From assembly GCA_030704615.1 (NCBI GenBank), contig CM060734.1, positions 34,968,001 through 35,032,000 on the forward strand: a stretch of DNA of 64,000 bases. The letters run 5' to 3'. The first letter of the stretch is position 1, and each line of letters begins with the position of its first letter. Under the pieces are notes generated by a model. That model saw nothing but the letters and a program-made list of their open reading frames with translations, was not told the origin of the DNA and made no database searches. The translations under genes and the position numbers were made by a program. Below are positions 7,401 to 62,220 of this stretch, piece by piece. Origin of the DNA: Takakia lepidozioides. Its lineage: Eukaryota; Plantae; Bryophyta.

Positions 7401-7870
7401 GTCGCGTCTTTCTTCGTAGCTCTCATGAAGGCTCTAGCTCCAAGAAACAGGGGTTGAATACCTTTGGTACTTTGCATTTTTGTCTTGCCAAAATTTTTTC
7501 GTGATCGTCAGTCGATGTCAGGATTATGAAGTACAAACCAGGGAAGTCCAAGGATCACATGATTCGTTGGAGACTGGATGACATTGAGAACAATATGTGA
7601 TGCTTGATTTTTAAGCTTCACTTCAAGGGGTCGAGTTTCATGGTCAAAATTTCCTGATACTAACGGTCATCCATCGATGACTTCAACAGGGGCCGAGAAT
7701 TTCTTTCTTACGAGCGTTAAATTGTGTTGCTTTGCAAAGTCTTTGTAAAAAAAAAGAACTGAAGCGCCCGAGTCTAAAAGTGCTTCTACGGAGATATGTC
7801 GATTTTGCATCCTGATCTTTACTGGAACTTTTTTTTTATGAGGAATTTGGGGTGTCCAGCCGCATGGTCC
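4430..7870 (-). pseudogene. Chromovirus pol: protease, RT, RNase H, integrase, chromodomain (frameshifted)
   Basis: ALLDSGAS (PR), RMCVDY..LNKVT and [11 protein letters not shown] (RT), TDHKNL (RH), HHCC plus SMDF/SDRG (IN; consensus TERVN is TARVN), RLGPFKI, EYEVDEVLDS..EYFVHWKCY (chromodomain). Many stops and frameshifts. Confidence 0.95.
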
Positions 7871-7898
7871 CTACTGTGACTGGATATCTTCGTTTTCC
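7848..7898 (-). promoter_or_regulatory. Putative -1 ribosomal frameshift signal at the gag/pol overlap
   Basis: G_GAA_AAC (7898-7892) in the gag frame, 7-nt spacer, then stem TCCAGTCACA/TGCGGCTGGA (7884-7875 with 7864-7855). Gag stop TAG lies in the loop. Confidence 0.55.
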
Positions 7899-8918: not shown

Positions 8919-8939
8919 CTTAACTAACTAAGGAACAAA

Positions 8940-8956
8940 CTTTAGTCTCGCCAAAC
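8940..8956 (-). promoter_or_regulatory. Primer-binding site complementary to the element's own R region (self-priming type)
   Basis: PBS TTGGCGAGACT(AAAG) pairs with AGTCTCGCCAA at 9226-9216, which lies 31 nt downstream of the LTR TATA start (9257). Confidence 0.8.
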
Positions 8957-9578
8957 TGTCAAGGACGAGAACATGACTGAACATAAACAAGAGATCAGAT
9001 TAGAGGTACAAGACTAGACAAGAAGTCAAGGTCGGCGTGGTCGTATGCAGGATGAGTAAATAGGAATCAAGATGATCTCTATAACAATGAATAAGAGTAC
9101 AAGATATTGAAACACGACTTGAACACTAGAATGCTGGAAACTGGACTGGAGTACCAGATATTGGAAACTGGGTTAGAGTATTGGGAACTGGAAACAAGAG
9201 TAGCTTGAACTGGTGTTGGCGAGACTGAAGAGTGTCCAGTCTCGCCTCCTATATATACTGGCTACTAAGAAACTTCCGTAAGAAGCTTTCCTTATGGAGG
9301 TTTCTTGCCAGAGAAGTTTCCAAGATTAAACAAATGTTTCTTGATGGAGAAGCTTCCTTAAACAAACAAGATATCTTGATGGAGAAGTTTTCTCTAAATG
9401 AAGCTTCCTGAGCAGTTTCCCAAGTTATTCTTGGTAATTTGGTAAACTCCCGGTAACTTGGTAAGTAATGATAAATCATGGTAAATCACGATAAGTCATG
9501 GTAACTTCCAATAGCATGATAACTTGGTTACTTTCGGTATTTACTCTTGGTAAGTTCCTCTGGGCTATGTCCGTGACA
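8957..9578 (-). repeat. 5' LTR of the chromovirus
   Basis: Direct repeat of 3171-3800. TATATATA at 9257-9250 on the minus strand. Confidence 0.95.
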
Positions 9579-10876: not shown

Positions 10877-11659
10877 ATTGATTATCTAAACCCTACATCC
10901 TAAACCTTATATTCTCTTACATATTTGTTCAAATGTATTGTATGATAAAATAATAAAGACGTGAGATGAAATAGTATATGTATGTATATCAAAGACAAAG
11001 AGGAATAGACAAAGCAGAATGAGGCTTGTAGCTATGAGACTAAGCTATGAGACTAGACTGACATAGAACATGCAAATAAGAATACCTAGATTTTGAAGGA
11101 AATGAGAGTTATTCACAAGACTAAACAAAGAGACAAAAAGAAAAAGAAAAAAAAGAAAAAAGAGACAAAAGAACATACAAAACAAAAGTAGGGTTTTAGC
11201 TTCGGAATTAGGACAACAACCAACATTGAGATGACAAGCAATTAGAAGAGAGAAGCAAAACAACACAGAACAATAAGGGACTTCATATGGAGATTAGGTT
11301 ACACATGTATGAACTTCATCCAAATCAAATGTACGGGTGACGATTTGAAGAAAAAGATTGTAATATCAAATGTCAAATTTTAAAAAATATATATGTTTTT
11401 TCTATTATATTTCTATATATTTTAGTCATCATAGTTGATTTTGTATTTTTAAAGCCAACATAAACACAAAATAAAAACTAAACCTAACAAGTACATACTC
11501 TAGATGTATTAAACATAGTTTATGAGGAATATAAGATAATGTTTTAATATTACTAAATGGGTTTCAACTTTTTCATATAGATATTATTATTATTATTATT
11601 ATATTTATGAAACTGAATGATTTATTTATATGTTTTTATTCAACATCAATATATGAATC

Positions 11660-13362
11660 GAGACCTTTGTTTTGTTATGTTTTGTTTTGTTTTGTAGCGT
11701 CGTTGAGATCTCCCAAACCGCGGGGCCCCAGCGCGGGTGCTTGATGCCGTTGGAAAGCCCTCGACGAGGAGGGGTGCACCGGCTTGGTCTCATGATTTTT
11801 GGACAAGCGGTGAGGGGGATGTGGAATTCCAAGTACTTTTGGTCGCTGGAAATTCACAAAAAATAGCAAAAATGGCAAAGTGGGCATTCCTGGGACAATG
11901 GTTGGAGCCTCGACGGGAGAGATATCAAGGGAAAGGTCTCCGGTTCAAATCTGGTCGTAGGCTCTGTGGAAAAAAACTTACTTAGATGACATTGGACACT
12001 TGGGCCAATGGCAAAGGCTACCCTAGAGGTTGCATTTGGGCCTCGACATAGGAAACGCACTTTGATACATAGGGGATTGCACTTGGACTTAGATGACATT
12101 GGACACTTGGGCCAACGGCATAGGCTACCCTAGTCAAGAGATGAAGCAAGACATTTGTTTTGTTTTGTTTTGTAGCGTTAAGATGTCCCGAACCGCAAGG
12201 CCCCAGCGCTGGTGCTTGGTACCGTTGGAAAGCCCTCGACGAGGAGGGGTGCACCGGCTTGGTCTCATGATTTTTGGACATGCGGTGTGGGAGATACGGA
12301 ATTCCAAGTACTTTTGGTCCCGGGAAATTCACAAAAAATAGCAAAAATGGCAAAGTGGGCATTCCTGGGACAATGGTTGGAGCCTCGACGGGAGAGATAT
12401 CAAGGGAAAGGTCTCCGGTTCAAATCTGGTCGTAGGCTTTGTGGAAAAAAACTTACTTAGATGACATTGGACACTTGGGCCAACGGCAAATGCTACCCTA
12501 GAGGTTGCATTTGGGCCTCGACATAGAAAATGCACGTTGATACATAGGGGATTGCACTTGGACTTAGATGACACTGGACACTTGGGCCAACGGCATAGGC
12601 TACCCTAGAGGTTGCATTTGGGCCTCGACATAGGAGACGCACTTGCATACATAGGGGATTGTACTTGGGCTTAGATGACACTTGACACTTGGGCCAACGG
12701 CATGGGCTACCCTAGTCAATATATGAAGCGAGACGTTTGTTTTGTTGTGTTTTGTTTTATGTGTTTTGTCACGTTGAGATATCCCAAACCGCAAGGCCCC
12801 AGCCTTGGTGCTTGGTACCGTTGGAAAGCCCTCGGTGAGGAGGGGTGCACGGGCTTGGTCTCATGATTTTTGGACTGCGGTGTGGGAGATGTCGAATATC
12901 AAGTACTTTTGGTCGCTGGAAATTCGCAAAAAATATGAAAGTGGGCTTTCCTGGCACAATGATCGGAGCCTCGACGAGAGAGATATCAAGGAAAAAGTCT
13001 TCGATTCAAATCTGGTCGTAGTAGGCTCTATGGAAGAAAAATGATGAGATACGTATGGCTAAAACGAATTTCAAGTACTTTTGGTCACTGGACAATGATT
13101 GGAGCCTCCACAAGAGAGATATCAAAGGAAAGGTTTCCGGTTCAAATCTGGTCGTAGGCTCTGTGGAAAAAAAATGATTAGATATGACTTGCTTCATATA
13201 TTGATGCATTTGGACTTAGATGACACTTGACACTTGGGCCAACGGCACAGGCTACCCTAGTCAGTATATGAAGCGAGACGTTTGTTTTGTTTTATTTTGT
13301 TTTGTCACGTTGAGATGTCCCGAACCGCAAGGCTCCAACCCTGGTGCTTGGTACCGTTGGGA
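11660..13362. repeat. Complex tandem repeat (~475-bp unit with ~107-bp subrepeat and tRNA-like module)
   Basis: TTGGAAAGCCCTCG at ~11751, ~12225, ~12821 and partially at ~13357. TTAGATGACA(T/C)T(G/T)GACACTTGGGCCAA occurs six times (~11982, 12089, 12457, 12564, 12671, 13216). Confidence 0.9.
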
Positions 13363-15489
13363 AGGAGAAATAAAAGAGAGACCACTGGACCACCTGAGGC
13401 TCCTCATGATATACTTAGTGCTTCAGAAAATAAATATGGATACTCTAATGTAGGGTGCACTACAATCTCAGATCCTGCTTTCCACCACTTTGAAGATGAG
13501 ATTTGTTCTTGTGGTGATAGGATGTTTTCTTGGAAAGATTCTAGTGTCTGGTGACAGTGGATGGAAATCAGAGTGCTGTCCTAATTTTGGGTTTGGGTGG
13601 TGGAGCTTCTCCAAAGCTTGAAGATGGAAGTGAATACGAATTTTAATGAGCTTGATGAGAGGGGCAGCCCTGTGCACGAGTTTGTTCAGCATCTTAAATT
13701 TAGACATGTTTGTTTGTTTCTCGTATCTAACAAGGAGCCGTGCCTCGTCACTTTTTTAATTTTTCGACCTTTTTTCTCATGTTGGAAAGCCATAAAAGCA
13801 ACATGTTCCTCTCCCATTCCTACACTCAACCATGTGGAATAATAATACAATGAATATGGAATATTCTATATAGAATATTCTTATTCCATCCTTTGATATT
13901 TTGACTATGGACCCTAAGATTAGACGAATCACAATTTTTTTTGTTTTTTTTGGGTACCCTTATTTAAGTGTTGTGCATATAAAATTGTTCCTATGCATAT
14001 CTAAAATTTGCATGCACGCATACATTCCTCCATATGCATGCATTTGTGTGTGCATATAGTATAGGCTACCTCTTCACCATAAAACTTAAAAATAACAATA
14101 GTCAACTCATGGGAGTATATTAATTTAAACATTCATTCAAAACCTTAAAGTACGAGTTTTCCATATCAGATATACAAATGATAATTTTCTGTAGAAACAA
14201 GCAACATAGAAAAGAATTCAGTATAAATAAACTATACTTAAGAAATTCACACACTTATAGCGTTTGGTGATGGTCAAACTTCAAAGTAATACAATAACAC
14301 TCTCACATGTAGGAAGATATCGCGGCTTGGTCTACGGGTACGTTGCCTCTCATCGCCTCTTAGTAATCATTCGCTATATTTATTTATTTCTACTTAAAAG
14401 CCTCGAAGAGTTTTTTTTTTTTTTTGGTTGGGTAGGTCTTAGAATCAAAGGCAAAATTGGCTCAAATAACAAAAGCTCTCAGACTTTTTAGAGATACTAG
14501 GTAAACATCTAAATTTTAGAGTTAATATTTTAAAAAATCTTTATGACTCTTGCTCCCAATGAGTAAAAAATTAGTCATACAATTATTTGATGATGGTGTA
14601 GACACATTTTCTTGGGCATGTAATGGTTTTGTAGGCCATTTATAGCATCCAAGTACACTCCAAGCTATAAAGGCAGTCATGACACATGTATGCGGTATAA
14701 CTCTGTCCAATGAGTTTCATAGAACAGAGATCAAATGCAAGGATAACTATGCATTATACAACCCAACACATTGGAACATGTTGAATGTGTGGCGACTATC
14801 TAATGAGACTCAATTAAAAAAGACACATACATCAATATTTGATGAATCTACAATAGCCGACATGTTTTATGCGATTTCTCATATAAGACGTAGTTGTATT
14901 TTTGTGTAAGATGCAAATGGATTGATGAAACGGGTAATAAAATAACAATAATTATTTCAGCATTGATCCACATGTTATCGAAAGAGCATAATGTTGGAGT
15001 ACAACTAGAATGACGAGACACCTCTACATATATATTGGGATGAAGGGAAATGATTTTCTCAATATTGCCACTTTTAAGTTTTTGGGTTATCTACGGCTAT
15101 GAAGATACATTCATCATCATTTATCATTTGTAAACGTGTTCATTCACTAAGGATATTCCGTATCAATGATTTTTCACTAATGAATGCATTTTGGATCGTA
15201 TGTATCTTGAGCTTTCAGATTATGATTTATAAGTCAAATAAGACCTCGGCCGCACTGGTGGCTAACTAGCCACTACTAGCTGTGGCTGACTAAACCATGA
15301 CTACTTAGCCGTGGCTAGAGGGCAACTGCACAGAGTGGCTAAAGTAAGCAGGTTAGGGAAAGTTAAGTCCCTGCTGTCCCGCAAACGTCGTCCTCGGTCC
15401 CGTGCGCATGCCCAGATTGGACACCGCAGAGGGGCTTGTCTTGCACAACAATTTAAAAAATCAAGAAAAAGGGGGGAGGGATGATGATT

Positions 15490-28039: not shown

Positions 28040-28800
28040 TGTCAGCGCGCCTTTCCACCTCCATGCCTCCGATTAATGCACCAGCCTATCGCCACAAAGA
28101 TCAACAGCTGGGCTGCCCGGGCGATTGGCTAAACTCGCCGCACCACTGGTTCCGCTATCTTGCCGGTCAAGACGCCACCCTTTTGACCGGCACTAGTAAG
28201 TTGCCAACCGCGCCAGGTGAGTAGGGGAAGCGTGTGCTGCACAAGCACGCGGTGAAAGACCGCCCGCTTTGACCGCGCTCTTTCGCCGGCAGCTTCCCGC
28301 GGCCCTATTGTGGCGCTCGCCTGCAGCGCTCTCCGGGTCTTCGGCCCCCCCTTTGACCCGCGCCGGGCTAGCCTGGCGCAACCGCGCGGGGGCCTGCGGG
28401 CGGCCGCCGCCGCGGGCGCACGTTGACGGCGGGGTGGTTGTGGTGCGCTGTGCGGCTGGGGCCGTCTCTCTCGCTGCCTCGCACACACCGTCTTCTCTCT
28501 CGAGTCTTTGCGCGAGCTGCTTAGGGCTTGCGAGTTCGAGCGATCGCAGCTCCTCCATGCCAGGCGCGTGAAGGCGTCGCGACAGGGTGTGGTTGTTCGG
28601 TGTGCCGGGGTAGAGACTAGAGACTAGAGACGTGCGGTAGTAGTGTGTTGATTGCGGTGTGGAGGAGGTTCCAACTTGCGTGTGGAGTGACGTTGTGGGG
28701 GAGGGGGTAGGGAGGGCGAGCGTCCTTGCCGCTGGACTCCGCTTGTTGGTGCATGTAATCGACGATTGAAGCGGAGAAGCTGCATAGCTCAAGTCGACGG
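28040..28800. promoter_or_regulatory. GC/CpG-rich island upstream of the F-box/kelch gene
   Basis: Dense CG dinucleotides against a CpG-poor background, followed by a CT-rich 5'UTR-like tract. Confidence 0.6.
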
Positions 28801-28815
28801 AGAGTGAACTCGGGG

Positions 28816-30229
28816 ATGACTAGTGTGGATAGTAGTTTGCCCTGCCCCCCTCAGAATGGGAGAGCGCGGAGCCGGAGTAGCTATCGGAGTAATAAGGCGG
28901 ATGGGATGACTGCTTCTTCTTCAAATAAGACGTTGGGGCGCTACGACATGTGTCAGGAGGTTAGGAAGAGGTCGCGCTCTCAGACTGTGAACCGGATTCG
29001 TATATTGAAAGAGCCTTCTTTGGCGACTAGTGTTGTGTCTGAGCATGGGGAGCTTGGCAACGGAATTGCCATTCCGGAGGACGTTGGGAATCTGCAGAAC
29101 GTGACATCCCGTCAGAGAGAGGACCGGTCGAATGACAACTCGCTGATTCCGGGGTTGACAGACCATGTGGCGCTGGAGTGCATCGCGCGGGTGCCTCGGT
29201 CGTATTACTTGCCGTTGAAGGGTGTTTGTAAGAAATGGCAGAATGCGCTCTCGGGTGTCGATGACGAAGGCCGCAATGATGTCCTTGAGACTCGAAAGCG
29301 GGTGGAGATCAAGGAGGAGTGGGTTGACATGCTGCTGGCCTGTCCCACAATGCTCAGCCTCCCATAGGTACGCAGAAGTGGCGGGCGTTTGATCCCGTTA
29401 GTACGCGGTGGCGATGTCTGCCGGACTGCCCCGTGGATATAACCTTTGAGGTGTCGCGACAAGATTCGGCAGTTGCAGGGACGCAGCTTCTGGTTTGCGG
29501 ACAGTGCTCGAGAGTCATGTATGGAGGTATGATCTCGAGACCAACGAATGGTCTTCAGCGCCAAGGATGATTCAGGATCGCTGTCTTTTTGGGTCAGCAA
29601 ATGCAGGGAAATATGCCTACTTTGCTGGGGGTTCTCACCAGCAGACGACTCTCAAGGCAGCCGCGCTACATCCATCGCTGCTTCAAGCTTGGGAGCCTCT
29701 CCCCGACCTCAACATAGCGCGGAAGTGGTGTTCCGGTTGCATTTTAGACGGTAAATTTCATGTGATCGGAGGGCAGGACCAGGATAGGCATGTCCTCAGT
29801 TCTGCCGAGTATTACGATGAGGTGGAGACCAAGTGGGTTGTGTTGGACTCTATTTGGCCAGTCAGCCCCAATCAGCGCGGAGTCTCGCCTGCTCCCCCTC
29901 TGGTTGCTGTCGTGGACAATGAGTTGTACGCCGTAGATGCTTTCACTATGGAGCTGAAGTGGTACATTAAGAGTACCAACAGTTGGAGAGCGCTAGGACG
30001 GCTGCCGCACAGAAGTGTGGACTCAAGCGGCTGGGGGATGGGTTTCAAAGCAGTTGGTAAGGAGATTTTTGTCATTGGGGGGTCCAGTGAGAATGGGAAT
30101 GGGATCTTCTGTGACGAAATCCATGCCTACAATCCGGATGCCGATGGAGGAGCTCCGATGTGGCGTCATGTATGTCAGCTCTTTTTCTCGAGTGGTTTTA
30201 TTTACAATTGTACTGTGATGACAGTGTGA
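28816..30229 (+). pseudogene. Intronless F-box/kelch-repeat protein gene with two frameshifts
   Basis: F-box SLIPGLTDHVALECIARVPRS..VCKKW; WRAFDP..RWRCLP; kelch repeats RCLFGSA..AYFAGG, RKWCSGCILDGKFHVIGG, PPLVAVVDNELYA, GWGMGFKAVG; C-terminal FIYNCTVM. Frame changes near 29345 and 29503. Confidence 0.88.
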
Positions 30230-38805: not shown

Positions 38806-40493
38806 TGTTGGTTTTCGGCCATATTTGTTTTTTCCTGACTGCCCTGGAAATTTGAAAAGGACTTGGCTTATACCTACTTGTACAAATGAGCCTGATAACT
38901 TAGGGGCCTGATAAGTTGTGAGAGCTGTTTCCATATCTTTAAGAAAAAAGAAAAAAGAACACTTGGTTGTGGGATCTCACAATAGAATTATGTTGCACCG
39001 TGCAACTTTGGTGGGGTTCGCATTCACCTTTTCAAACCTTTCCAAGTATGATGGGGACCAGTGTTTGTTTGCCTGCCGAATAATCGCTAGATTTCAACCT
39101 GAGATATGTGTCAGCTACCTGTACAAAAGAATTATTTGATAGAGCCCACCCACCGAAAGGGGCCGTACCCGCAAGGGAAGAGGCTCTTATTTACGCTAGC
39201 TTCGGTTGGCATCATATATATACATACAAACGACGAAAGATTCGCCAAAAAGTGCCAGCAGTTGAGTATCAGAAGCCTGATTTTACCATCATGGACCCGT
39301 TAAAACATGCCACCTAGTTTTTCTTGCCACATAGGCGCTGGATACAATTCACATGTGGCCCCTCTGGCAATTTTGGAAAATGAAAAACAAACAGTGATGG
39401 GGAAGTATTTCAATGTATCAGCGCAGTTGGGCAGGAGACCCAGCTGTTAGAGAATGATAAGCAGCATCATCATGACATCTTTGTTTGCGATACCACATCG
39501 GTAGGTGTGTAAGTTGGCACATTCGAAACATGGGGGGCTACGCATTCGGAGACCATGAGAATCTCATGGACCATGCTATCAAGGCCTCCAAGGGATACTC
39601 CCACTAAGACCCTCCAACTCAATTTCTGTAAGGCTTTCGTTATGAAAGACCCAATTGACTGTACAAGAGTTACCTTGGTACATACTTGGAATGTCCTTTG
39701 AAATGAAAATCGAAAATGCTTGGATCTCCAATCCAAGGAGACGAGGGCAGGGAGGCCACGAAGGTCATGTGGCATAGAAAACAAGTGATACGCAGCACCA
39801 GTCAGTTCACTTGCTGCAGTGCACTGCGGTGGGCCTGCACACAATTCGTACCATTCCTGCCAAACTCAGTACAACAACACTCTGCATGGGGCCCACTTCT
39901 CAGCTTGCTGTTTTTTTCAGTGAACCACAGCTTTCCCGTGGGGGATCGATCCTCTCATGGTCATAGGCCTTAGACATGGTTATTTTTTCCATGTCCTCTT
40001 AGTAAATTTGGAAGGGCCTCGGACCTCGGATCCCTTTTTTGTGTTGTATTTGTATTTTAAAGTAAGTAAGTGTGATGACAGAGTGATTGTGTGTGCTAGC
40101 GACCGCCGTAGCTTTTGAGAGTGGTTCCACGTCACGGCAAGTCAGCCCCCGTGGATGGTCTGACGAGCGTTGAATCGCGCCAGACGAGGACCCCACGGCG
40201 GGCGCATGGACAGACATAACCGCCATATATTCGAGCTGCGCAAGGAGGTTTGTGCAACGGAGATTGCCTCGCTCCTCTCTGCTCCTGAGGCTGAGCTCTC
40301 TGCCGGAACCCACTTAGAAATTCTGAGAAGCAATTCATAGTCGCCCCTCAATCTCCTTTCATCTAAACCGGCATCTGTCTCTGTTTGGGAATAGCATTCC
40401 TGTGTAGCTTTTCTTTTCAAGTGGAACGCGGTGCGCGTATCGGATTGTTGAGGAAAGCCGGTGTTTTCAATCGGGTGGTACGTTGGGTGCAAG

Positions 40494-43202
<2,709 letters not shown>

Positions 43203-44904: not shown

Positions 44905-46200
44905 ACTCCCACTCGAGGTGAAGTGCTGTGATCTTCAATGCGAGCTTCAGTAAGACCCAGCATCCCCTTTAGTTGTTCAAAGCGAGGCTTCGGCATTGGC
45001 TTGGTCAGTAAATCAGCAAGATTTTCTCTGAGGCGATGAACTCCAGTCGAATTGTACCGCGAACATGCTCATCTCTTATCTTGTGATACTGTACATCGAT
45101 ATGCAGCAATTCGGGTCAGATGGGATCGCAAGAGGGGTTGCATTATCAAAACTGTCCTTGGCCAGAAATCTATCACATATCTGGACTGCTCAATCTGCAG
45201 GGTTCTTTTGGCTCTGTCTCGTGTAATGCGCCGTAAGCCTACGTAAAACTCGGGATTGCAACTAGTTAGTTTGAAGGCTTTGCCCATGTAGCCTATCATT
45301 GTGGTGACTCCGGTGGTTGACACACTACAGATAATTCCGTCATCTACAAAAATGATAAGGATGAGTCTGGGATTGGCTGTGCTAAGATATACACAAGGAT
45401 CGGCTGTAGTGGGAACTAGGCTATATTCGGTCAGGATATCGTTAAAACGCTGATTCCAGACTCTACTTGACTGTTTCAGACCATACAAAGCTTTGTTCAA
45501 CTTACAGACTTTAATACAAGTGGAAATTGATCTTCGAAGCCGAGGGGGGGTGCCATGAAGATGTCTTTGGTTATCTCCCCGTGCAATAAGGCTATGGTTA
45601 CATCGAATTGGGTCATCTCAAGATCCTCCGTTGCTGCAATCGACAAAATTGTGCGGATAGAGTTGAATTTCACTACAGGGCTGAATCGTCTCTTCATAGT
45701 CAATTCCTTCCTGCTGAGTAAATCCCTTTGCCACTAGTCTTGCTTTGTAGTTCGATGTTACCTTGCAGATTGTGTTTTAACTTGAATATCCATTTGTTCC
45801 TGATGAGATTTCTTCCATTAGGCAGGTTACAAACAGACCATGTGTTGTTTTCAAGCAAGGCATCATACTCTGCCTGCATTGCATCTCTCCAGCTAGCTGA
45901 TTGCGGTGACTACAAGGTGTCATGCATAGTAAGGGGTTCTTGCGATACTGTGCTAGGGTTGGCTTATGCTACGTAAGCCTAGTCACCGTACCGGTCGACT
46001 GGCTTCCGCTCTCTGCCGTTGTATGGAGGTACCGTTACGAATTCTCCCACTGTAGGAATGGATTCGGCTGCTACTGCTTGTCCGACTCCCACTATTTGTA
46101 TAGCCGATACTGCAACTCCAGTTGACTCTATTTCGGCTTCCTGAGCTGGCACTGTAAGCGGTTGGGATTCTGTGCACGTCGGCTGCTCTGGCCAACATGC
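44905..46200 (-). mobile_element. Ty1/copia pol remnant (RT and end of RNase H)
   Basis: AMQAEYDAL..NTW, KGFTQQEGIDYEETFSPVV, QFDV, KALYGLKQSSRVW, IFVDDGII, LADLLTKP. PPT-like GAGTGGGAG next to TGTAA at ~44904. Confidence 0.9.
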
Positions 46201-47365: not shown

Positions 47366-50261
47366 CTTGACGACATTCATTTCTCCATTCGCTGTTATGG
47401 CGTGAGGAGTCTGTAAGTAGAAGGGTTTATTGCCAAAAGAAGACACTGATGTACAGATGGACTATACCGGGCAACCAAATTTGGGGGTGGGCATAGTTTG
47501 TACGCATTTACTCTCATTTCAACACTGGCCGCAAATCGTTTTCAGACATAAACTCGAGCAGGAATAACCACGAACACCATCTGTGCGTTTTTCTTAGCTA
47601 GCTTTCATGCCCGAAGACATATCCATATCTACCAAGTTACCTCGGGAACAAAAGAGCCCAGTCGTGGTTTTGCGGCCCAGTCCTGATTGAGGCCGAGATC
47701 GATGGTTGTGTGACCTGCTTTCTTTTCGCTAGTGATTGTGACAGGGCAACTTTGGATTGTAGCCCAATGCATTGAAGTACATATACATAAATGTTAGTGT
47801 GATCCGAGCTTGTGACATCCACACAGTGTCGTCGCACACAGGATGCGTAAACCACACTAATCCCTAAAGGCCGAGTACCGAGATCCTCATCAGTCCCGAG
47901 GAAGAATCGGAATGAATATGCAAAGCTCCATGTCCTCCACAATTGCCCAGCCAGAGTGGACGTCACGTAATCGTCGTCCTCCAATGCCACACCATCTCTA
48001 AGTCATGCGAACCCAGTAGACTTCTGTCGTTGATGTTCGCGGAGCCTGTCAACACATCTCGATCGTCACCTATCGTGTAGCTTTATCTTTGAGGCCCGAG
48101 TGTATTATATAGGCGTTGCAGCAAGGAGTGTTGTCCCCGACAGATTGCTCGACACCGGTTGTGATCGTATTATCACCATTTAGACCTGAAATGAAGAAGT
48201 GGTTTTCAATGTAGACAAAAGACTGGGCTTATTCTATGAGCGAACAGTATGCTGCATGGATTCTATTCTCCTCTTTCCTTCCGACCATTGCCCAAACTTC
48301 GTATCACTTGGCAACGGCATGGTACACGGGGTCCAACATCACCAATTGTCTCCAACTTTGAAACCTGCCCAGGTTCACACCTCCCACCACTCCCTTTCCT
48401 TGCCTCATGCGTCTCCATTCTCTTTACTTAATTGCCCCTTAAGCCTCACTGCTGCCCGCTGGTGAGTACATTTATCCATGTCTGGATCCTCCACGAAGCT
48501 CTGCAAGCAGCCTTGTCAAAGAAGCCTAGGCTAGTTATGACTTTTTTTATGGAGCGTTTGCGGGCGTTTGTTTTGCTTTGCTTTGTGTCTCCCTTCTTGC
48601 TTGTTTGCTCACAAGTGTAGGGATGGTAGTGCCCCCTGCCGCTCTCCCTAGTGTGCAGGCGGAGGCCATACCCAAGGCCATGTCTTCTCTTTGTGATGAA
48701 TGGACGGGAAGCCCTACGGTATGCAACAGACCAAAGGGGTAGGCTGTGTGTTTGTGTCTGGTTTGAAAGCATCATAAAACAGGGAAAGATTTGGGAGGGG
48801 AATGGGAGGAGAGCATCGTGGTGGCCACTACCATTGTAGAATGCTAACTTGTATAGTAGGAATTTATAAATATGATTGCTGGCCTTTCAGTTTTTCTATC
48901 AAAAGCTTCTGAACCATGGGAGAAATTTGAAACAAGAAATTTCCCCACCCACAGGATATTAGAGCTTTCAGCATTTTCTCAAGCCTGTCCAATGTAGTGA
49001 AAACAATGGCTTTCACTTAAGACTATGGAGGAGTTCCTCTCAATGAGAAGACTACCCGTTGCATTGCAACAGAAAACTTACGACATTGTTACACCAGACC
49101 CAGAAAACGGCATCCACGATCCCATTGGGGGGTGGGGTTTACAGTACAGATGTAGGCAGCACACTATCAATGTGAACTTCAGTACAGTTCATATGGTGGT
49201 TCAATCTCACCATACACCCAGGGTTCCCTCAGGGATGTGAGTTTCTGCTAGTGTCCTTTTCCTTGTAAGAGAATGCAACAGGTACCAAAAATCTTTGCAT
49301 GGTTGCTAAGGCCAGAGTCGTCAGAAACAAAAAGGTGGAGAACCCAACTAAGGTGTCCAAGGAGTTGGAGTGGGCGAGGTGTATTGCAGTGGAGGTGGAA
49401 CGAAGGTAAGAAAAAACTTTTTGTTGATTCCAGAAAATGTGTTATGATTCAAGGCTACAGAGTCATGTATCTGTCAAATTGGTGTTTTATGCACATTTTG
49501 GGGTTGACTGTAGGGTCCACGCTTAGACTTTGTGGGGCCAACGCCAGGGAGCACAGCTGTGGTAGCACTGAGTCCTGATAAGTATCTACTGGTGGCCAAC
49601 GCCGGAGACTCACTTTGTATCATGCCACCATGGCAATGTATAGTATGTAGCTTCTTCTGCGTATGTGTGCTAGGAGCAGGGAAGAGAGAAGAGAGAAGAG
49701 TGGCATGATAGATTAATAAAAGGTTGACGGCACAGAAATTGGACAAATTTTGCTTCTGTGGTCACTGATCCAGCGTTTTGTAGCTTTGTTGAAATCAACA
49801 GTCTTGTCTATACAAAAAAAGGATTCTAATGGCTGGTGGATTCATCCATGGTCAGCGCTTAAATGGTAGCCTGAATCTAACTAGAGCCATAGGTGGTTTG
49901 TGATACAGTGACTTCCTAGGGGAAGAAACTGTGTGTGGGTTTGTTGGATGTTTCAAGTTTTCTTCAAAGTATGTTTGTGCCATTGTGTGTAACTCCAATT
50001 TTACGTCTGTCCATATGCAGGGAGATACTGCAGTCAGACCTTGACCATGACCATTGCTTTTGAAAGAAGACCCAGAAATGGAGTCAACAAGAACTCTGTT
50101 GGCACTTGTGGGAATGTGATGACATTATGTAAGGTGGTAAAACTAAAAGAGACACTTCAAATTTTGAACCAACAAGGCATTTAGCAGATGCCAATATTTA
50201 ACATCTGTCTCTTGTAGGAGTGTATCAAAATAAAAGACCTAGAAACAGGAAAGCAGGTACC

Positions 50262-50562
50262 CACCACGGTCCCATTGGACCGTGATGAGTCCCAAGACTC
50301 CCCACGACTCCCACCACAAGGTCTTCGCCCCCATGGTGAGTCCTATGCTACCCCCACTAAGTCCTACTAAGCTACCACCACCCTTCATGGAACCACCCCC
50401 ACCGCAACCCGGTGTGTGGGGCTCCACCTAGTGAGCGCCTCCGCTTCCTTGGGCACTCAAGGGTGCTTCAGCCCCCCGCATCTATTGTTGCCACTGCCCC
50501 CACCACAGGGGCAGCCCCTCTCGTGTCCCGACCCCCTGCCCTCAAGGCAAAAGACCGCAACA
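50262..50562 (+). repeat. Partial copy (right half) of the LTR found at 54569-55292
   Basis: Matches ~54986-55292 and ends CCGCAACA (vs CCGCGACA). Confidence 0.9.
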
Positions 50563-52108
50563 TACAGGATCTGGAGGTAGAAAGAGACATTTTTTTGTGA
50601 GGAATTTGGGATGTCTAGCCGCATGGTCCCTACTGTGAGGGAATTTCTTCATTTTCCGACCTCCTCGTATCGAACACTTGAGTTGTGCCCCGAGCTTTGA
50701 ATCTTATCTTGTTGGGGCAGTTTAATGCTATGTGATCATCTTCTCCGCAATAAAGACATAAACCCTAAAGCGCCATTTTTGTTTTTCTTGTGGCGTCAAT
50801 GGCTTGAATCAGACAGCATCAATCTGCAGATGATCATTACCGGATGTCTGATGGATCGTTGTGTTTGGTGTCGTAGTAGCAGCGGCATGGTGCGTCGTCG
50901 ACCATCCAGATCGCTTCTCTTGACGTCTTTCGAACAAACGATTATCGCATGCAATGACTTAGGTGATGAATTCGCTCAGTGTATTCACGTTTGGCATTGT
51001 CAGCAACAAATTTTTTATATCATCTTTTAGGCCACATCGAAACTGACTAATGAGGCTCTTCTCATTCTAGTCGAGGTCGCACGCAAGTTGTCAAAATTCG
51101 GCAGCATAAACGGAAGCTGGACGTGTTCCTAATCGAAGATTTCGCATCTTTGTCTCTGCAACTCTCTCTCTATCATTCTCTCCAAACGTTGCAGTGAACT
51201 CGGACATGAACGCTTTAAAATTGTATAGTAAATGCGAATTTTTCTCTAATAGCGGTGCAAACCAAGATATGACAGTGTCTGATAGAATGGTGCCCACGAA
51301 TCCCACTTGAATACCTTCATCAGGGTAGCGTTGTGGATGTACATGTAGTCGTAGGAATAATCGTACTTGTTGAACAAAACCGCGAAATCTGGATCTCGTC
51401 CCATTAAATTTCTCGGGCATGCTGACCTTTGGTTTCTTTGTAATCTGTTGAAGATTTGGATGAACCGTTGCAGTATGAGTTGTTATAGTAAGGACTCGTA
51501 AGGTTGCAGATCTATTGTTCGACTCCTTCAACTCTGAAATTTGTTGTTGCAAATTGTTGAGAGCGTTGCCAAGATCTTGAGACTGATCAGCTTGGAGTTG
51601 GGCAGTAGAGGTACGAAGTTCTTGCATCTGGAGCTGAAGACTCTGCAATGTGACGACCATTTTCGCAAATGTGCCTTCCATCTTAATTAACTAAGGAACA
51701 AACTTTAGTCTCGCCAAACTGTCAAGGACGAGAACATGACTGAACACAAACAAGAGATCAGACTAGAGGTACAAAACTAGACAAGAAGTCAAGGTCAGCA
51801 TGGCCGAATGCATGATGAGTAAATCTTTATAACAATGAACAAGAGTACAAGACATTGGAATGCTACTCGAATAATGGAATTCTAGAAACTGGACGGAGTA
51901 CCACATACTAGAAACTGGGCTAGAGTACTGGGAACTGGACTAGAATACTGGGAACAGTAGCTTGAACTGGTGTTGGCGAGACTGAAGAGTGTCCAGTCTC
52001 ACCTCTTATATATACTGGCTACTAGGAGGTTCCCTAAGAGGCTTCCCCAAATGAGGTTTCTTGATGGAGAAGTTTCCTTAAACAAAGGAGGTATCTTGAT
52101 GGAGAAGT
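50563..52108 (-). mobile_element. Truncated second copy of the Tcn1-like chromovirus (part of 5' LTR, PBS, gag, start of pol)
   Basis: Collinear with ~7830-9390. LTR edge TGTCAAGGAC at 51720. Same PBS. Gag MEGTFAKM at 51681. Confidence 0.93.
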
Positions 52109-52559
52109 CACTAGAAGCATGCGTGTCTTTTCCGAATCGACTGGGTGTCTGCCAACCACTCCGAGAACCACTTGGCAGTAAGCGAGACTACTGGAGAGTC
52201 GAAACGGACAATGTGGGGCCACGGGGGCATTTCAAACGGCAGGCAGAAGTGGGGTCAACAACTCCAGAGTCGTAGAAAAAATCCGGGCTATTTAATTAAT
52301 TACGTAAATACATAAAATTTGAAAAAGCGGAAATTACAAGTGGTTCTAATTACTGCACATGCGACTAGAAATTTTCATTCATAATTCGATTAATGAAATA
52401 AATAAATAAATTTATTAAAGTGAATATGTAGTCGACTCAACGACTCCATGAACCACTGCGCATTGATTGCACCCGTGATTCGCGGCCACATTTGCTGGTG
52501 TGTTTCACAAAAACATGCAAACAAAATCTGGCCTTGGGGGCTTGCATTACTGCCTCCAC

Positions 52560-52790
52560 CTGGAAGTGACATGGAAGGTCCATGGTGACATCAAGAAAGC
52601 TGGAATTGTAGGGTTTATCAATCTGAACACTGCCCTGGTGGACATGTATGCCGAATGCGGGAGCATTGAAGATGCAAAGGTAGTGTTCGACTGTGGCTCA
52701 ACGAGATGTGGTGTCGTGGAATACGATGATCACATTGGATGTATGCATGACTTGTGCAGAAGCAGTGATAGCTGAAGGAGCAGGATAGAA
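52560..52790 (+). pseudogene. PLS-class PPR fragment (inverted relative to the adjacent PPR)
   Basis: KVHGDIKKAG..NTALVDMYAECGSIEDAKVVFD..RDVVSWNTMI. Confidence 0.8.
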
Positions 52791-52829
52791 TGTGGGTCCA
52801 TATTCATCCAAGAGGGTCGGAATTCAAGC

Positions 52830-53430
52830 TCCAGATTACCTATGGATGAGGCACATGCATTGAGAACACAAATAAATGTGACTTTGTTGGGGCTCACTCC
52901 TTCGCACATCATTTGCTCAAAAATCTCCAAAGCCTCCCTACCACACCCATGATACATGTTGAGCATATCCTGCAATCATAGCATTCCATGAGAACATATC
53001 TTTTTCAGTCATCTTGTGGAACACTTGATGTGCATCCTTCATACTCCCACATTTGGCATACATGTTAACAAGCGCATTATCCAGATTAATACATAGTCCA
53101 ATTCTAGCTTTGATGATCTCAGCATGGATCTCTTTGCCATTTTCCAAAGCTCCAAGGCTGGCACAAGCCTTGAGAATGCAGATGAATGTAACCCTGTTGC
53201 GTGTCACCCCTTCCTGTATCATTTGTTCATAGATTTCAAAAGCTTCCTTACCATGCCCATGTTGGGCGTATCCTGATATCATCATAGTCCAAGTAAACAC
53301 ATCTCGTTCAGGCATTAGGTCAAACACTTGACGTGCATCCACCACGCTCCCACACTTGGCATGCATGTTGATAAGCGTGTTCAAAAGAAAGATGCCTGGC
53401 TTGAATCCACTTTGGATTATATGGGCAGTG
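52830..53430 (-). pseudogene. PLS-class PPR protein fragment (RNA-editing-factor type repeats)
   Basis: NTLINMHAKCGSVVDARQVFDLMPERDVFTWTMMISGYAQHGHGKEA..VTFICILKACAS, with a second P-L-S triplet. Frameshift near 52950. No start codon and no E/DYW domain. Confidence 0.92.
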
Positions 53431-53431
53431 C

Positions 53432-53965
53432 ATGGATGCCATGGACTCAAGGGTGAAGACAGCCACAGCTGCACCATGGCAAGCGACAACTACAAGGTTG
53501 CAGGAGTTTCCAGCTAGACCAGCCATTGAGCATAGTATGGTAACTCCTGGGGTAGTCCTGATGGACAATCAGGATGGTGTGTTTCAGTTGGGTGGCCCAA
53601 CCGGGAGGAGGTATAGACCACTACAGGTCTTGTTGGACTCGAGAGCACAGCCATTGATGTTGGGGAGAGCAGCAATTGTAGGCTTGGGCCTTACAGAGGC
53701 GGATTTGGAGCCTTACCCTTTCCAAATTCAAACATCTTTGGGTGGTTCAAAGAAGGCGCGAGGGATTACACGCCATGAGCTCTTCATTCGATTGCAGCCG
53801 GATCACTTTATGGACGGCTCAGTCATGAGAGCTAAAACCATTGTTACGGACGCAATGTCCTATGATGTGCTTGTTGGTGGGGCGGTGTTATACCCCATGG
53901 GATTCATTTTGGACTTTTGGGAGAAAAACGACATCCTACAGGCCGGAATGGTAGTTAGGAGATAG
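53432..53965 (+). pseudogene. Retropepsin-like aspartic protease of a Ty3/gypsy pol
   Basis: VLLDSRA (DSGA with G>R; Asp codon at 53636), flap-like QTSLGG, and YDVLVGGAVL. Confidence 0.8.
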
Positions 53966-54239: not shown

Positions 54240-55709
54240 TCAGGGATTTGTTTGCTAGACTTGTTTGGAGGCATGAGCACTGGGCTTGCAGGAGTATTGC
54301 AAGCAGGGATTAAAGTACGCAAGTACTTGTATGTGGAGAAGGATGAGATAACTCGGCGTATTTCTATGCGGCATATCGCCTTGCTCACACACCGATATCC
54401 TGAGTTGTTGTCTCTCTCAGCAATAAAAGGGTATCAAAAGGCCTTGCCAGTAGACATTACCTTGTTGGGGGCGGATGATTTGGACCGGCATGGTGCCATT
54501 GACTTGGCGATAGCCTGACGGCCTTGCCAAGGACACTCTCCCGCAGGTCATAGGAATGGTTTGCATGATGTCGCGCACCTCACTTCGGTAAGCTCCCCCT
54601 TCAAGTCATAGTTACTCGCTTTGATGCGCGCGCCTGACTCCCAACCTGGCCGCCCGGGCCAACTTGGAGCTTCGGCTGCTCACCGGGACATAACGGTCCC
54701 CCTTCGCTTCCCTCTAAACCCTCTACCTATTTGGGACTAGGAGAATTCCCTTTGGTAGATGGCAGTCCGGAACAGCTCCCCACTCTTTGGTCGCTTTCCG
54801 GCTCGCGCGCTTACTCACTAGTTTTTGGTCACCAACGGGCTTGCACCGTTCTCGGGGTTACTACTCCCTATATATACTTCTGTAGTTGTCCGCGGGGGTT
54901 TCATAACCAGCCATGCCATTTTATGGCGAACCACCACGAAAACCCTCGACTCCCGGTGATGAGTCGCGGTGAGTCTTGGACCACTCACCACGGCCCCTAT
55001 GGACCGTGATGAGTCCCAAGACTCCCCACGACTCCCACCACGAGGTCTCCGCCCCCATGGTGAGTCCTATGCCACCCCCACTAAGTCCTGCTAAGCTACC
55101 ACCACCCCTTGAGCCACCCCCACCGCAACCCGGTGTGCGGGGCTCCACCTAGTGAGCGCCTCCGCTTCCCTGAGTGCCTTGGGCACTCAAGGGTGCTTCA
55201 GCCCCCCATACCTATCGCTGCCGCTGCCCCCACCACAGGGGCAGCCCCTCATGTGTCCCGACCCCCTGCCCTCAAGGCAAAGGGCCGCGACACATGATGC
55301 ACGACCGCATTTGTTTTGGGAGATGTTGCGAGTGTTGCGGGACTTGCCGACGAGGCAAGTGCAACCTCTACGCTATATCTTGGAGAATGTTCCTCTTATG
55401 GGGGATTCTCGGGCCAGGGTTATGGCTAGTATGCATCAGGTGCGGTCTTGGATTGGATCGGCGATGCTATTGGATGCAGCAGCGGTGGGATCCCACGCGC
55501 ATCGACCTCGATTGTGGTGGACCAATCTTGCACCACCAGAGCTGCTCAAGAGAGCATACGATTCCATTCAACGGCCACCCAATCTCACGGTTGAAAGCAT
55601 TTTGGACCAATGGAGGCAACCACAGAGAGTGCGACATGATGATTGTCCGCCTCTAGCAGTGGTCCATCGAGTGGGGCAGCCACGTGCGGCCTTGCCTACG
55701 CTCATGAGC
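54240..55709 (+). pseudogene. C5 cytosine DNA methyltransferase domain within retrotransposon pol, interrupted by a solo LTR
   Basis: Motif I LLDLFGGMSTG (54252-54284), II YVEKD, III DI, IV IDLAIA*RPCQGHS (Cys 54525), V GLHD|AR..LFWE, VI YILENV (55383), VIII SHAHRPRLWWTNL (~55491-55529). Confidence 0.9.
54569..55292. mobile_element. Solo LTR (724 bp) inserted in the DNMT domain
   Basis: Termini TGTCGCG...CGCGACA. 5-bp TSD CATGA at 54564-54568 and 55293-55297. Internal TATATATA near 54868. Removing it restores the frame GLHDARPHLFWEM. Confidence 0.92.
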
Positions 55710-56597
55710 AGGGAACAGTGGCCTGAGCAGGAACAGAATAGGTAGTCGAGCCTCCCGAGGCCTCTCTCGCCGCCATAGTTCTAATACTAGAGATGGAAAG
55801 TGGGTGAGGTCTGTATGGTGGAGTCCTTTAGCAAAGGTGCCATTGGCTTGACTTATATAGCGTGATAGAGTGGTTTCTCCTCTTTTCACCATTTCCGTAT
55901 CATTGTGGCGTGGTTTTCTAGGACTATATGCTAGGAAGTGTGGTTGGATAACGATGTATGTTGTGGCACGATGCTTAGGTGCACGACACGTTGCTCATAA
56001 CCACCACACTATCCTTTGCTTTCTGCAAACCTTGGAAATAACTAATATTTTATGTGCATTCCCAGTACATGTTTTATGTGTTTTATGGGCCGCAGCAGAC
56101 TTGCTTGCCTGGTAGACCCAGCAACAGACCTGCTTGCCCGGCAGACCCAATAGTAGATTGAGCCGCAGCGGACCCTCCGACGGGTAAGGGCGCTCCCAAC
56201 CTTCGCAACCCTCGCTGCTGCATGTGGGCCCCGCCGTAGGCACACGCATGCGCATTGAAGACGCTATTATCTTTCAATGAGAAACGATTGAAAGTACATG
56301 AAATTTAATGATGTGAGTTTTGTGACCTATAGCAACCCTCCCATCTATTTGGTTTGAATTTTTGCAAAAGATGTTGCTGATGATGTAGGCTGTAATACTC
56401 ATCTACAAATGATTTAGGTGGCCGACAACTTTGCAACCGCCTAATTCAAGCTGTTGCATTTTTTTCATTAATGTTTTTTTGCTGCAACCATGACCGAGGA
56501 AATGGATTGATGAATTTTCCAGCAACCATGACCATTCCAGCATTTTCTGGCGGTCATATCAATTTTAATTTAAAAACTGACATTTGATTATCAAATT

Positions 56598-57440
56598 ATG
56601 GTGGTCGCATGCCCGGACCACGTTTGGCACATAGAACGCACAAGTGCAGGGTCTCGTGTGAAATGTACAGCGATCAGGGCAACAAATTTCGAGAAGTGTA
56701 CTTCATCTATATCCAGAGATGGTGCCCGGACTCCTACTCCGACTTTCACGGGTTTGATGCGTCCATACGGTCAACCAGAAGCCAAGAACCACAAGTTCTG
56801 GTTCTGCACAGATGATTGTGGCAGATATGTGCATGGAACCGTGCGTCCTTCCGTGGTGATGAAACCAGCTCCTCCAACCGTTTGGCCCGTCAAGGTGGGA
56901 ACACATCTCACAAGTCAGGAGATTGCAATGCTGGAGGAGGCAGGCTTTTCCCTTGCGAGACAACCCCAACTGCATGCATGTGCTACTACTTCTACGTCCT
57001 CTCGGGTACCTCCGGCAAATCCTCACTTGTGGCCAACCTAACGAGATGGAAAGCTCGTTCGGCGTTTCCCTCCAACCGCTGAACACTTTGGCAAAGTGGA
57101 GTCCGCAAGAATGCTCCAAGCTCGTGTTGCAAGCACCACGGAAGTGCCCGATCCCGGATATGGTCGGGTGTATACAATGATCACTTCGACATCTGCTGTT
57201 CATGACAGGGCCTACGACATCACGGTTTCCAATTTCCCCAATTGCACATGTCCTGATTTTGTGAATATGCTATCAACCAGTTTGGGCAAGAGAGGTAAAT
57301 TCATACCCTGCAAACATTTGTATTTCATATTTTTGAAGAGGATGGTTTGCGATCCCAAACGTGACAACTTCGTTCACCAAGCCACTCTAAGTTTCAACGA
57401 GGTCGATACTCTATTGCAGCGCGATACAACACATAGGTAG
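56598..57440 (+). pseudogene. SWIM zinc-finger protein ORF with one in-frame stop
   Basis: ORFs 56598-57041 and 57096-57440 are in the same frame. YDITVSNFPNCTCPDF..PCKHLYFI fits the SWIM CxC..CxH pattern. Confidence 0.75.
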
Positions 57441-58088
57441 CATCAACTATGCAATGTGGTATGTGGACGACCATGCTATGAAATGTCTAATTTGCAACAT
57501 TGTCATGGAAATTCAATTCAAATCAATTCGTTTGCAACATCGTCGGCGGTGCAATGATATGGTGTCTCTTATCCCTCCATTATGCTTCTAACTATACCGA
57601 GTGAGCTCTGAGTGGCAACTTTTATAAGCACATGCATCATTGCACCGTTCGAAGTCTACATGTCTTCCTGTCGCTATGCACTGCAATCATCTTTTGAAGA
57701 TGATCCTAACTCTCATTGTTATTTGGGGAGGGACTCTGGTCTTCTCGTGGCAGCCTCTATGGTACACACTTTGTAAGGATATTTTCTCGTCCTCGTAATT
57801 GTAACAGTGAAAGAAATATTTGTAATTGCACAATGTTGGATGGTACAATTGTAGGCCTCATGGCAGTCTTGATTGTATTCAGCCAAGGATTCCCTGCATT
57901 AATCCCACGGTCATAGGACCATCCTCGGTTATAGGCGACGCATGTTAGTGCTGACGTGGCTAATGACAGTGCAGTGCCACGTCATCATTTGCCGCCACAT
58001 CAGCCTGCTGACATGACGCTCACGCCAGGTCAACGTGGGTGCAGGCTCACGCCACGTCAGCTAGCGTGAGCGTACGCTCGCGCCATTG

Positions 58089-58690
58089 CGTCGTTGTGCA
58101 TGGATTACGACTCAATCCATCTGCATCCCGATTGACAATACCGGCTCGATGCACCACCTGGAAGTCGCACTCTTGAAGTATAAGTGCCCACCGTGCAAGC
58201 TTCCCTGTAAGCTTGTCTGACTCCATCAACCACTTCAATGGTTGGTGATCCGTGACAAGGGTGAAGAGATTGCCATAGAGGTAGTATCTGCAATGTGCCA
58301 CTGCCCATACCGCAGCTAGATACTCCCATTCATAGGAACTATACTTCGTCTCGGCATCATTGTTCGAGCGGCTAGCATATGCCACTACGAACTCTCTTCC
58401 CTCATCATCCACCTGTGTGAGCACTGCTCCAATCCCCAAACATACTCCAATCCGTATATAGCTGGAAAGGCCGCCCCCGAATAAGCCGCCTCAGAATAGG
58501 TGCAGAAGTCAATCGAGCCTTGAGTTCCTCCTGCTCCTCCTCCCACTGCCACTCCTGACCCACCTTGGTCAACTTGGTAAGAACCCCTTGCCCGCTCTCG
58601 CTCATCCGCATTGGGCTTCACCAATTGCTGTAGCACACTGTCCCAAATCAACCCAAGACCATTGTCTCGGAAAGCATGAGAGGAAGCATG
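58089..58690 (-). pseudogene. DNMT C-terminal segment fused to Ty3/gypsy RT-connection/RNase H
   Basis: SSHAFRDNGLGLIWD..KPNADERERARG (58690-58583; motif IX-like), then LTKLTK..WQW..LTSAPIL..YTDWS..GIGAVLTQ..AYASR..VTDHQPLKWL..LARWAL..ADGLSR. Confidence 0.85.
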
Positions 58691-59004
58691 AACTCTCTTG
58701 TCATTAGTAGTGATCCCAAACACATTCCTCTCTTGTTGTATAGTATTGACCCCAAGCACTAGCTCAATTTTTTTATTTTTTATTTTTTTTGCTTTATCGC
58801 TGTTTCTCAATGTGACTGCATGTCACTACCACCTGTTCCTCCTTCTCTTTTGCTTTCTGGTCACCAATGTTGGGTGGTGCTATGAGGACTTAGCTACATT
58901 AAAAGAACAGGGAGGGGGGGGGGGGGATGTACTCATAAGACGTTAATTGCCATAGCCATAGACATGGAAACAGCAGCGACAGCAGCATGTGGGGGGGAGA
59001 CGTC

Positions 59005-61019: not shown

Positions 61020-62220
61020 AGGGGCCTTTAAAACGTGGCTCCCAAGGTAGGAAAATTCTAGGATTTTGGGGGAGCATAGCCATTGAGGAGAGCTTCCGGA
61101 TGCACCGGAGGGGTAGCTCAGAAGGTCTATCAGTCCAGAGCTGGAGACCGAGACATTGAGAGACTAGGTGGGACAAAATCACTCCAACGCTACTCGGCTT
61201 CCCATCATAGAGGGGCGCACATCTAGCTTTCCTAATATGCCACAGCATAAGAGCTCTAACACAGGACTAGACCGGACAGTCAGACCACAAGTCACCATGA
61301 ATAAAGTTTAAAAACAAAATGGAATGGCAGGGTAATGCGAGGTTTTTCCACAGATTGTAAAACAAGAACGTGATTCCAGATAGCGGAGGCCAGGGGACAA
61401 TTGACCAGGCAGTGATCAATTGTTTCATGGGTTTGCACACGACACCAAGTACAATCCATAAGACCCTCCGGGAAATGATCGCACGGACTGGCAGGATTCT
61501 ATTGACCAGCTTCCACAAAAAAACACTTATATTTGAAGCCTTGTCTTTCCTCCACACATCCTTCCAAATAATAGTCCAATCTAGGTAGGGCAATCCGGTA
61601 GGTGAGTCCATTTCCTGGACCACTTGGAATCCATAGAAGCACCAGGCTTGAGAAGGGAGGCCAAATCCACTCACCGCGGTCAAATTGAAGGAGAGAAATG
61701 GGAGCTTGAAGGAACCAGTGGAGGTACGGGTTGGAATGTAACCCATTATCCAGCGAAGGGTTCACCTCCCCTGTTGCCAAACAGAAAACTTTTATGGGAA
61801 AGCATTGGAATTCAACCATTTCACAAAAGACCGGGGAAAAGAGGAACCAAACGATTTAACCTTGAACTTCCATCCTTGCAACAAGTCTCCAGATCTTGAC
61901 ATTGCGAAATCTAGGCTGGCGGGATACTACTGGTGACCAAGTCCCAACCTGCCACCGCTCTTCTGGAAGAAGGTTGGGAGTGGCTTTAAGCCTAGGGATC
62001 ATCGCACCGCTCCCTGGGTCAACCTTTATGGCACCCACTTTAGAGGTTATTTCTTCTCTTTGTATCCCTTGGGAATTTAGTCCCCCTGCTAGAAATTTCA
62101 GGGCTTCCATCCCCTTTTTTATTTTAAGAAAAAAACTGATAGTGAAACTCATTTGTGGGTGTCAATTTAACTTGGGCATATTTGGTAGGGGATAAGGCAT
62201 CTCCACCGGGGGTACACCAA
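61020..62220 (-). mobile_element. LINE ORF2 3' remnant with zf-RVT
   Basis: IWKDVW..NISVFLWKLVNRILPV..CTWC..ETIDHCLVNCP..IW, and LWHIRKARC. Confidence 0.8.

Follow-up and report, generated by a model that had tools for sequence, protein, structure and literature searches.

A DNMT3-like methyltransferase frame split at a codon boundary in a decayed Gypsy retrotransposon of Takakia lepidozioides, probably by a two-break inversion

A Gypsy copy with a divided methyltransferase frame

We analysed a window of 64,000 nucleotides from the moss Takakia lepidozioides (contig CM060734.1, positions 34,968,001 to 35,032,000). Besides the retrotransposon described here, the window holds a kelch F-box gene, the best matches of which are Sphagnum proteins (62-70%), and PPR fragments, those near the element lying on opposite strands. 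The retrotransposon copy begins on the plus strand with an aspartic protease (PR) region (53435..53947) that is 42-53% identical to homologues by tblastn and changes frame near 53925. Alignment to homologues places a linker and motifs I to IV of a DNA methyltransferase (DNMT) immediately downstream, at 53967..~54568 on the same strand. An in-frame stop at 54516-54518 interrupts motif IV; other copies differ at 54519. The methyltransferase is then broken by a solo-LTR-like insertion of 724 bp (54569..55292), which has TG...CA ends and a 5-bp duplication, CATGA, and which belongs to another, very high-copy family with a summed read depth of 1-2 million. A partial copy of the same insertion lies at 50259-50562, and the empty-site joint, from 54563 to 55293, is found in sequencing runs X1 and X5 among the joints listed. 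Behind the insertion the DNMT frame continues on the plus strand from 55293 to 55709, through the part that follows motif IV and what we take to be motifs VI and VIII, and reaches into the target-recognition region. A search with this frame returned 34 longer proteins, some of them from Marchantia, Calypogeia and Sphagnum, and most with the DNA_methylase family.

At 55709 the similarity halts. The last DNMT residues are ...RAALPTLMS, and the residues thereafter are unrelated. About 3 kb away the minus strand reads, from 58690, HASSHAFRDNGLGLIWD...PNADERERARG, down to 58583; these 36 codons hold the rest of the target-recognition region and motif IX. Reading of the frames thus bore out the initial annotation, which had the DNMT frame stop at PTLMS and resume at 58690 on the opposite strand. 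It had further proposed that the two fragments are consecutive pieces of one DNMT, which should abut in intact members of the family. Indeed, they meet with neither gap nor overlap. We examined 36 homologous proteins, of which 28 matched both pieces, and the gap between the end at 55709 and the start at 58690 was 0 in 27; the sole exception, P0034 (gap -11), has an internal deletion in its gene model. The same was done at the nucleotide level with 80 related loci from metagenome contigs, 79 of which matched both pieces, and the gap was 0 in all 74 loci where the first piece aligned through its last residue. The pieces do not overlap, since the similarity of neither extends past its junction. 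The homologues align to the window as four pieces: protease, DNMT start and DNMT middle on the plus strand, and 58690-58583 on the minus strand. The closest homologue, P0013, is the top match for both DNMT pieces (79% and 82%). Over the set of homologues, identity to one piece is only weakly correlated with identity to the other (rho 0.15, p 0.46). With a second piece of 36 amino acids a weak rank correlation is expected, yet the correlation lends no support to a common origin.

The right-hand side of the join deserves some caution. In its first three codons the minus-strand piece departs from what most relatives have (F-P), although an H is found in P0001, P0004, P0064 and P0065, and these codons form a near-tandem 9-mer. 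The departure leaves an uncertainty of up to 9 nt in the position of the right breakpoint. The three codons may be filler, in which case the protein alignment makes the join look cleaner than it is.

The initial annotation had also called for reads across the junctions, and these were obtained for the one at 58690. Ten sequencing runs were found, four of them from one sample with about half of the words, and X1, X2, X5 and X8 were analysed. In X1 and X2, which consist of short reads, contigs of 201 nt with zero mismatches cover 58652-58852, reaching 39 letters into the DNMT; the depth in X1, 49.7, corresponds to about a single copy. The right junction therefore exists in the DNA of that sample. 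Both runs come from one sample, possibly the one that was assembled; as such they exclude a mis-assembly at 58690 rather than speak for an independent individual. Among the 15 of 113 joints and 32 of about 58,100 pieces listed, none linked 55709 to 58690 on opposite strands and none crossed 55709 or 58582, which speaks neither for nor against those junctions.

The putatively inverted block and the deletion within it

If the two DNMT pieces were once contiguous, the block that would have been inverted spans 55710..58690 (2,981 bp), its right end, on the minus strand, abutting 55709 exactly in relatives. Little of this block is retrotransposon. Its left part, 55710..56570, has no match among the 80 related loci or in the rest of the window; read depth marks 55830-56040 as repeated and 56043-56464 as low copy. 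Next comes, on the plus strand, the C-terminal part of a SWIM-zinc-finger ORF (56574..57440), which is repeated, carries one internal stop, lacks the 5′ part and is 72% identical to P0035. The SWIM profile scores this ORF at E 0.0016, under the cut-off, and P0035 passes the cut-off. We presume that it is a fragment of a DNA transposon. An Atlas search for a relative of the SWIM ORF gave no match at or above 0.9. It occurs in 0 of the 80 related loci, whose identity does not exceed about 66%, and we rejected on this count the idea that it is a native antisense gene of the element.

Retrotransposon sequence returns on the minus strand at 58096..58582, where the DNMT-bearing family is represented by its RT-RNase H connection and its RNase H (RT_RNaseH, E 3.7e-31). 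This segment contains a frameshift near 58438, and the RNase H ORF itself is open. It is 62-79% identical to the RNase H that lies behind the DNMT in 36 related loci, as opposed to 43-46% for the 2 other gypsy RNase H matches, and is therefore part of the same element as the DNMT. Element homology ends at about 58096, and integrase is absent beyond. Element DNA in the block is thus confined to 58096-58690, or 595 of its 2,981 bases, and the breakpoint that is not in the DNMT lies in no recognisable element sequence. The initial annotation had described an inversion through one element. An inversion stands as the simplest cause; "one element" does not, given the small share of element DNA, the SWIM ORF and the other DNA in the block.

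Within the block, the 36-codon DNMT piece (58583..58690) runs straight into the RT-RNase H connection at a second junction, 58577..58583 on the minus strand. Related loci hold a median of 1,347 nt between these two parts (1,308-2,293; 42 loci), comprising motif X, the end of the first ORF and RT. All of this is missing in the window, a loss of about 1.35 kb, which agrees with the earlier proposal that a junction near 58582 removes motif X and RT. Other copies run on into RT at 58582 (at least 5 contigs in run X5), and in the related locus L004 the DNMT-side alignment extends to 58577; the joint therefore has 2-6 nt of microhomology. The same proposal had this junction fuse the DNMT to the connection. 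This is true of the DNA, but not of any protein: the DNMT piece, the connection and RNase H occupy three different frames, so that no DNMT-RNase H fusion protein is encoded, and we rejected an in-frame fusion as an explanation of the joint. Nor does the junction tie DNMT to gypsy pol in any special way. In undamaged relatives PR, DNMT, RT, RNase H and integrase follow one another in a single line, in agreement with the published account of KnitGypsy-Dnmt3, and the DNMT-pol link, native to the family, is intact in 42 related loci.

The remainder of the element is gone. Neither gag, RT nor integrase of the DNMT family has a match in the 64-kb window; the 5′ end, with gag and the terminal repeat, is missing, with PPR fragments in its place. 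At least five lesions are present besides the split of the DNMT. The copy is dead, having lost gag, RT and integrase and acquired a stop in motif IV and a solo LTR. Its catalytic motifs are not intact, with the stop in motif IV, the insertion behind it and no motif X, but these broken motifs mark a dead copy and not a different family. The rearranged arrangement has no function, as neither an intact DNMT nor an intact pol can be read from it.

How the frame came to be split

We consider it most probable, with a rough probability of 0.78, that a Gypsy element bearing a DNMT3-like methyltransferase was split at a codon boundary, after its insertion, by a two-break inversion of 55710-58690 with end joining. 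One break would have hit the DNMT and a second, some 3 kb further downstream, DNA that had ceased to belong to the element; end joining would then have put the block back in the opposite orientation, losing few bases or none. The loss of about 1.35 kb at 58582 was likely a separate event, produced by microhomology-mediated joining. A two-break inversion predicts that 55710 and 58691 were formerly contiguous; the outer flanks at these two positions found no match among the 80 loci or in the rest of the window. Inverted repeats near the breakpoints were absent among the longest 25 of 49 pairs, and inverted matches no more than 60 nt away from the two junctions reached 6 nt at most, which was also the most frequent value in 300 random pairs. 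Since this is the level of chance, recombination between inverted repeats is unlikely, and we rejected it. Twin priming was rejected by reasoning, as it would put the 3′ end of the element at the outer boundary.

The most durable of the other explanations, though still an unlikely one, is a more complex event, in which a DNMT-RNase H piece of 0.6 kb or larger was moved or copied in reverse, through template switching or three or more breaks, while the remainder of 55710-58095 kept its original orientation. Four junctions do fall within 3 kb (55709, ~58095, 58582 and 58690), the near-tandem 9-mer at the right junction is possibly templated filler, and the neighbouring PPR fragments also lie on opposite strands. 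However, this history takes more steps than a two-break inversion, and no observation demands them. We regard it as distinctly improbable that aberrant transposition of a SWIM-bearing element within the block made the inversion. A repeated ORF, likely of a DNA transposon, is indeed inside the block, but the outer flanks share no common terminal sequence, the split codon shows no target duplication, the breakpoints have no inverted repeat, and the SWIM fragment lacks its 5′ part. A wrong orientation introduced by the assembly is very improbable: the region is rich in repeats and read support is confined to the right junction, yet that junction appears in mismatch-free contigs of two runs, the window is without any N that would indicate a gap, and an assembler has no reason to break off the left piece precisely where the right piece takes over. 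Finally, two independently truncated copies lying by chance 3 kb apart on opposite strands can practically be dismissed, despite the high copy number of the family and the weakly correlated identities of the pieces, since two unrelated ends would need to coincide to within 3 codons in a ~9-kb element, at odds that we estimate at roughly 1 in 1,000, and since both pieces have the same best homologue.

The two-break inversion, our preferred reading, is ordinary decay. Deletion, nesting and small inversion are common in the decay of plant LTR retrotransposons, and the same kinds of lesion are found here: nesting of a solo LTR, a microhomology deletion, truncation and a small inversion. Mechanistically there is no difference; the break merely falls in the DNMT. 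An element of a known kind has decayed here in the usual manner, in a host group from which we found no record of it in print.

The DNMT-bearing Gypsy family in bryophytes

The relatives are elements of ~9 kb that encode gag-PR-DNMT, then RT, RNase H and integrase, with a PHD finger at the integrase end. From their PR-DNMT-RT-RNase H-integrase order the window retains PR, DNMT and RNase H. The host of the related loci is likely a peat moss, judging from a sequence cluster that joins their JGI proteins with named Sphagnum proteins. When the DNMT of one relative, L002, was compared with PDB, the top 29 matches were DNMT3A/B/C (best E 5.4e-11), and bacterial, DNMT2 and DRM enzymes came in at E 1e-3 or weaker. 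The DNMT pieces of the window align in order to the relatives, with their motifs not rearranged, and their DNMT3 kinship is drawn through L002. DRM methyltransferases have permuted motifs. A host DNMT3 or DRM gene, for which several exons and a place outside any retroelement would be expected, was rejected as the source of the window sequence, given the flanking protease and RNase H, the very high copy number and the DNMT3A-like motif order. Split direct repeats in the arrangement A..B-A-B were present in 3 of the 6 related loci with room on both sides, and the other 3 showed A..B only; two of the three A..B-A-B loci have common flanks and are likely one insertion. The window copy lacks both ends.

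A Gypsy element with a DNMT3-related domain, KnitGypsy-Dnmt3, has been described from the alga Klebsormidium nitens (de Mendoza et al. 2018, PMC5890265); its methyltransferase activity was inconclusive in yeast (PMC5890265). According to the text of that paper, it shares with the window family an intronless DNMT3-related domain within the Gypsy coding region and unrearranged motifs, and its "repeats as in DIRS" match the split direct repeats of the window's relatives (PMC5890265). There are differences as well. The alga carries KnitGypsy-Dnmt3, whereas the window copy sits in a bryophyte and is dead and rearranged. In the relatives the DNMT closes a gag-PR-DNMT ORF, with an in-frame stop before RT, whereas the text on KnitGypsy-Dnmt3 speaks of a "Pol polyprotein ORF" (PMC5890265). 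The integrase of the relatives ends in a PHD finger, and the words "PHD" and "gag" do not occur in the text of PMC5890265, the figures of which may show the same ORF layout. The window copy fits a presumed relative of KnitGypsy-Dnmt3, a likeness drawn from the published description.

Closer to hand are the gag-PR-DNMT proteins P0006, P0007, P0010, P0011 and P0034, from Marchantia polymorpha, Calypogeia fissa and Sphagnum, which are 44-65% identical to the window DNMT piece. In them protease, DNMT and downstream pol succeed one another as in the window copy, but they are contiguous where it is split, and their only annotation is as hypothetical or unnamed. Later papers, in the passages seen, cite the DNMT-bearing Gypsy family under "streptophytes" (10.64898/2026.05.21.726589; PMC12344493). 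We found no report of such elements in mosses or liverworts in the literature covered, most subscription journals being outside that coverage, and the portions of the Phygy and Selgy clade descriptions available to us make no mention of a methyltransferase.

The stop between DNMT and RT may be more than a boundary. Among the 60 loci aligned over the site, the DNMT and RT frames are split by an in-frame TAG in 39 and TAA in 19, and 2 have TAC. CAACCC stands directly after this codon position in 55 of the 60; in the main subfamily it is one base off CARYYA and is followed by ATG. Subfamilies that are 48-68% identical in the DNMT show TAG CAACCA (L027 and L057, in the latter preceded by two other stops), TAG CAACTA (L044, L045) or TAG TAGCCA (L066). 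A second method, applied to 80 loci, found a stop with CAAYYN in 53, tyrosine in 2, other contexts in 6 and an unreadable site in 19, against a background of 4 in 2,941 for stop with CAAYYN; most loci in these counts are close kin. CARYYA after UAG is described as the read-through signal of TMV (PMC2754532). L027, L044, L045 and L057 match this signal, and the main subfamily is one base off. In the window copy the site is deleted. We put the chances at about even that the family is a widespread Gypsy-Dnmt3 lineage of bryophytes, with Gag-protease-DNMT as its main product and RT-RNase H-integrase-PHD made only by read-through at a conserved stop of UAG-CARYYA type. If so, the methyltransferase would be present in the particle at Gag-level amounts, placed to methylate new cDNA, and the PHD finger would guide integration.

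The rearrangement itself carries little weight, being one more lesion in a dead transposon, and the split DNMT is a clean example of a lesion that annotation pipelines would miss. The DNMT-bearing family is of greater importance than the inversion. If the stop context of the relatives is a read-through signal, it sets the amount of methyltransferase that the element makes, and the idea of self-methylation put forward in the 2018 paper would become directly testable in Marchantia.

A stop codon between the DNMT and RT frames

Among the 80 related loci from metagenome contigs (L001-L080), the open reading frame (ORF) that encodes gag, PR and DNMT is separated from RT by an in-frame stop, which lies ~360-500 nt past DNMT motif IX (for example, L002 10775-10777). 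Among the 60 of these 80 loci that were aligned at the stop site, the codon is TAG in 39, TAA in 19 and TAC in 2, and it is directly followed on its 3' side by CAACCC in 55. Members of other subfamilies carry variants of this sequence: TAG CAACCA in L027 and L057, TAG CAACTA in L044 and L045, and TAG TAGCCA in L066. The background rate for a stop in the CAAYYN context is 4/2,941. We also searched the decayed loci L067, L068 and L078 for a stop with this context and found none.

Architecture of the related elements

The relatives are ~9 kb long and have TG...CA ends (L063, 5439-14642; L032, 5297-14614; also L060, L002, L006, L023 and L059). Split direct repeats occur among these ~9-kb elements in the order A..B-A-B, where A is 337 bp and B is 115 bp, and a PHD finger forms the C-terminal end of the integrase.

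Other repeats and host genes in the window

A separate Gypsy element, with LTRs 89.7% identical, occupies 3171-9578, and a gag/LTR fragment of its family (88%) lies at 50590-52107. The window also contains a degenerate tandem array of ~475-bp repeats (11646-13364) and two minus-strand ORFs, one judged by eye to resemble a Copia RT fragment (45069-45617) and the other resembling a LINE zinc-finger fragment (61267-61761; weak zf-RVT, E 0.064). The host genes are a kelch F-box protein gene (28759-30229), whose best named match is from Sphagnum (62-70%), and a class II DAHP synthase gene (40452-41572). On the strength of these genes, the host is likely a bryophyte.

Insertions and opposite-strand fragments in and around the window element

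The solo-LTR-like insertion at 54569-55292 shows a 5-bp target duplication and belongs to a family of very high copy number, of which a partial second copy (~89%) lies at 50259-50562. A repeated SWIM-finger ORF lies at 56574-57440 (plus strand), in a region that runs to ~58095; its family has unnamed relatives (proteins P0035-P0039) in clusters of up to 15. A GC-rich palindromic stretch (~57960-58095) adjoins the break in RNase H homology. Two PLS-type PPR fragments, at 52479-52775 (plus) and 52938-53425 (minus), adjoin the element where its 5' side is truncated; they are 72% complementary, and this opposite-strand pair (52479-53425) is possibly another inversion. At L078 (2542-3779), pieces of protease and DNMT lie on the opposite strand, ~1.3 kb behind another DNMT copy. 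Opposite-strand pieces are not unique to the window.
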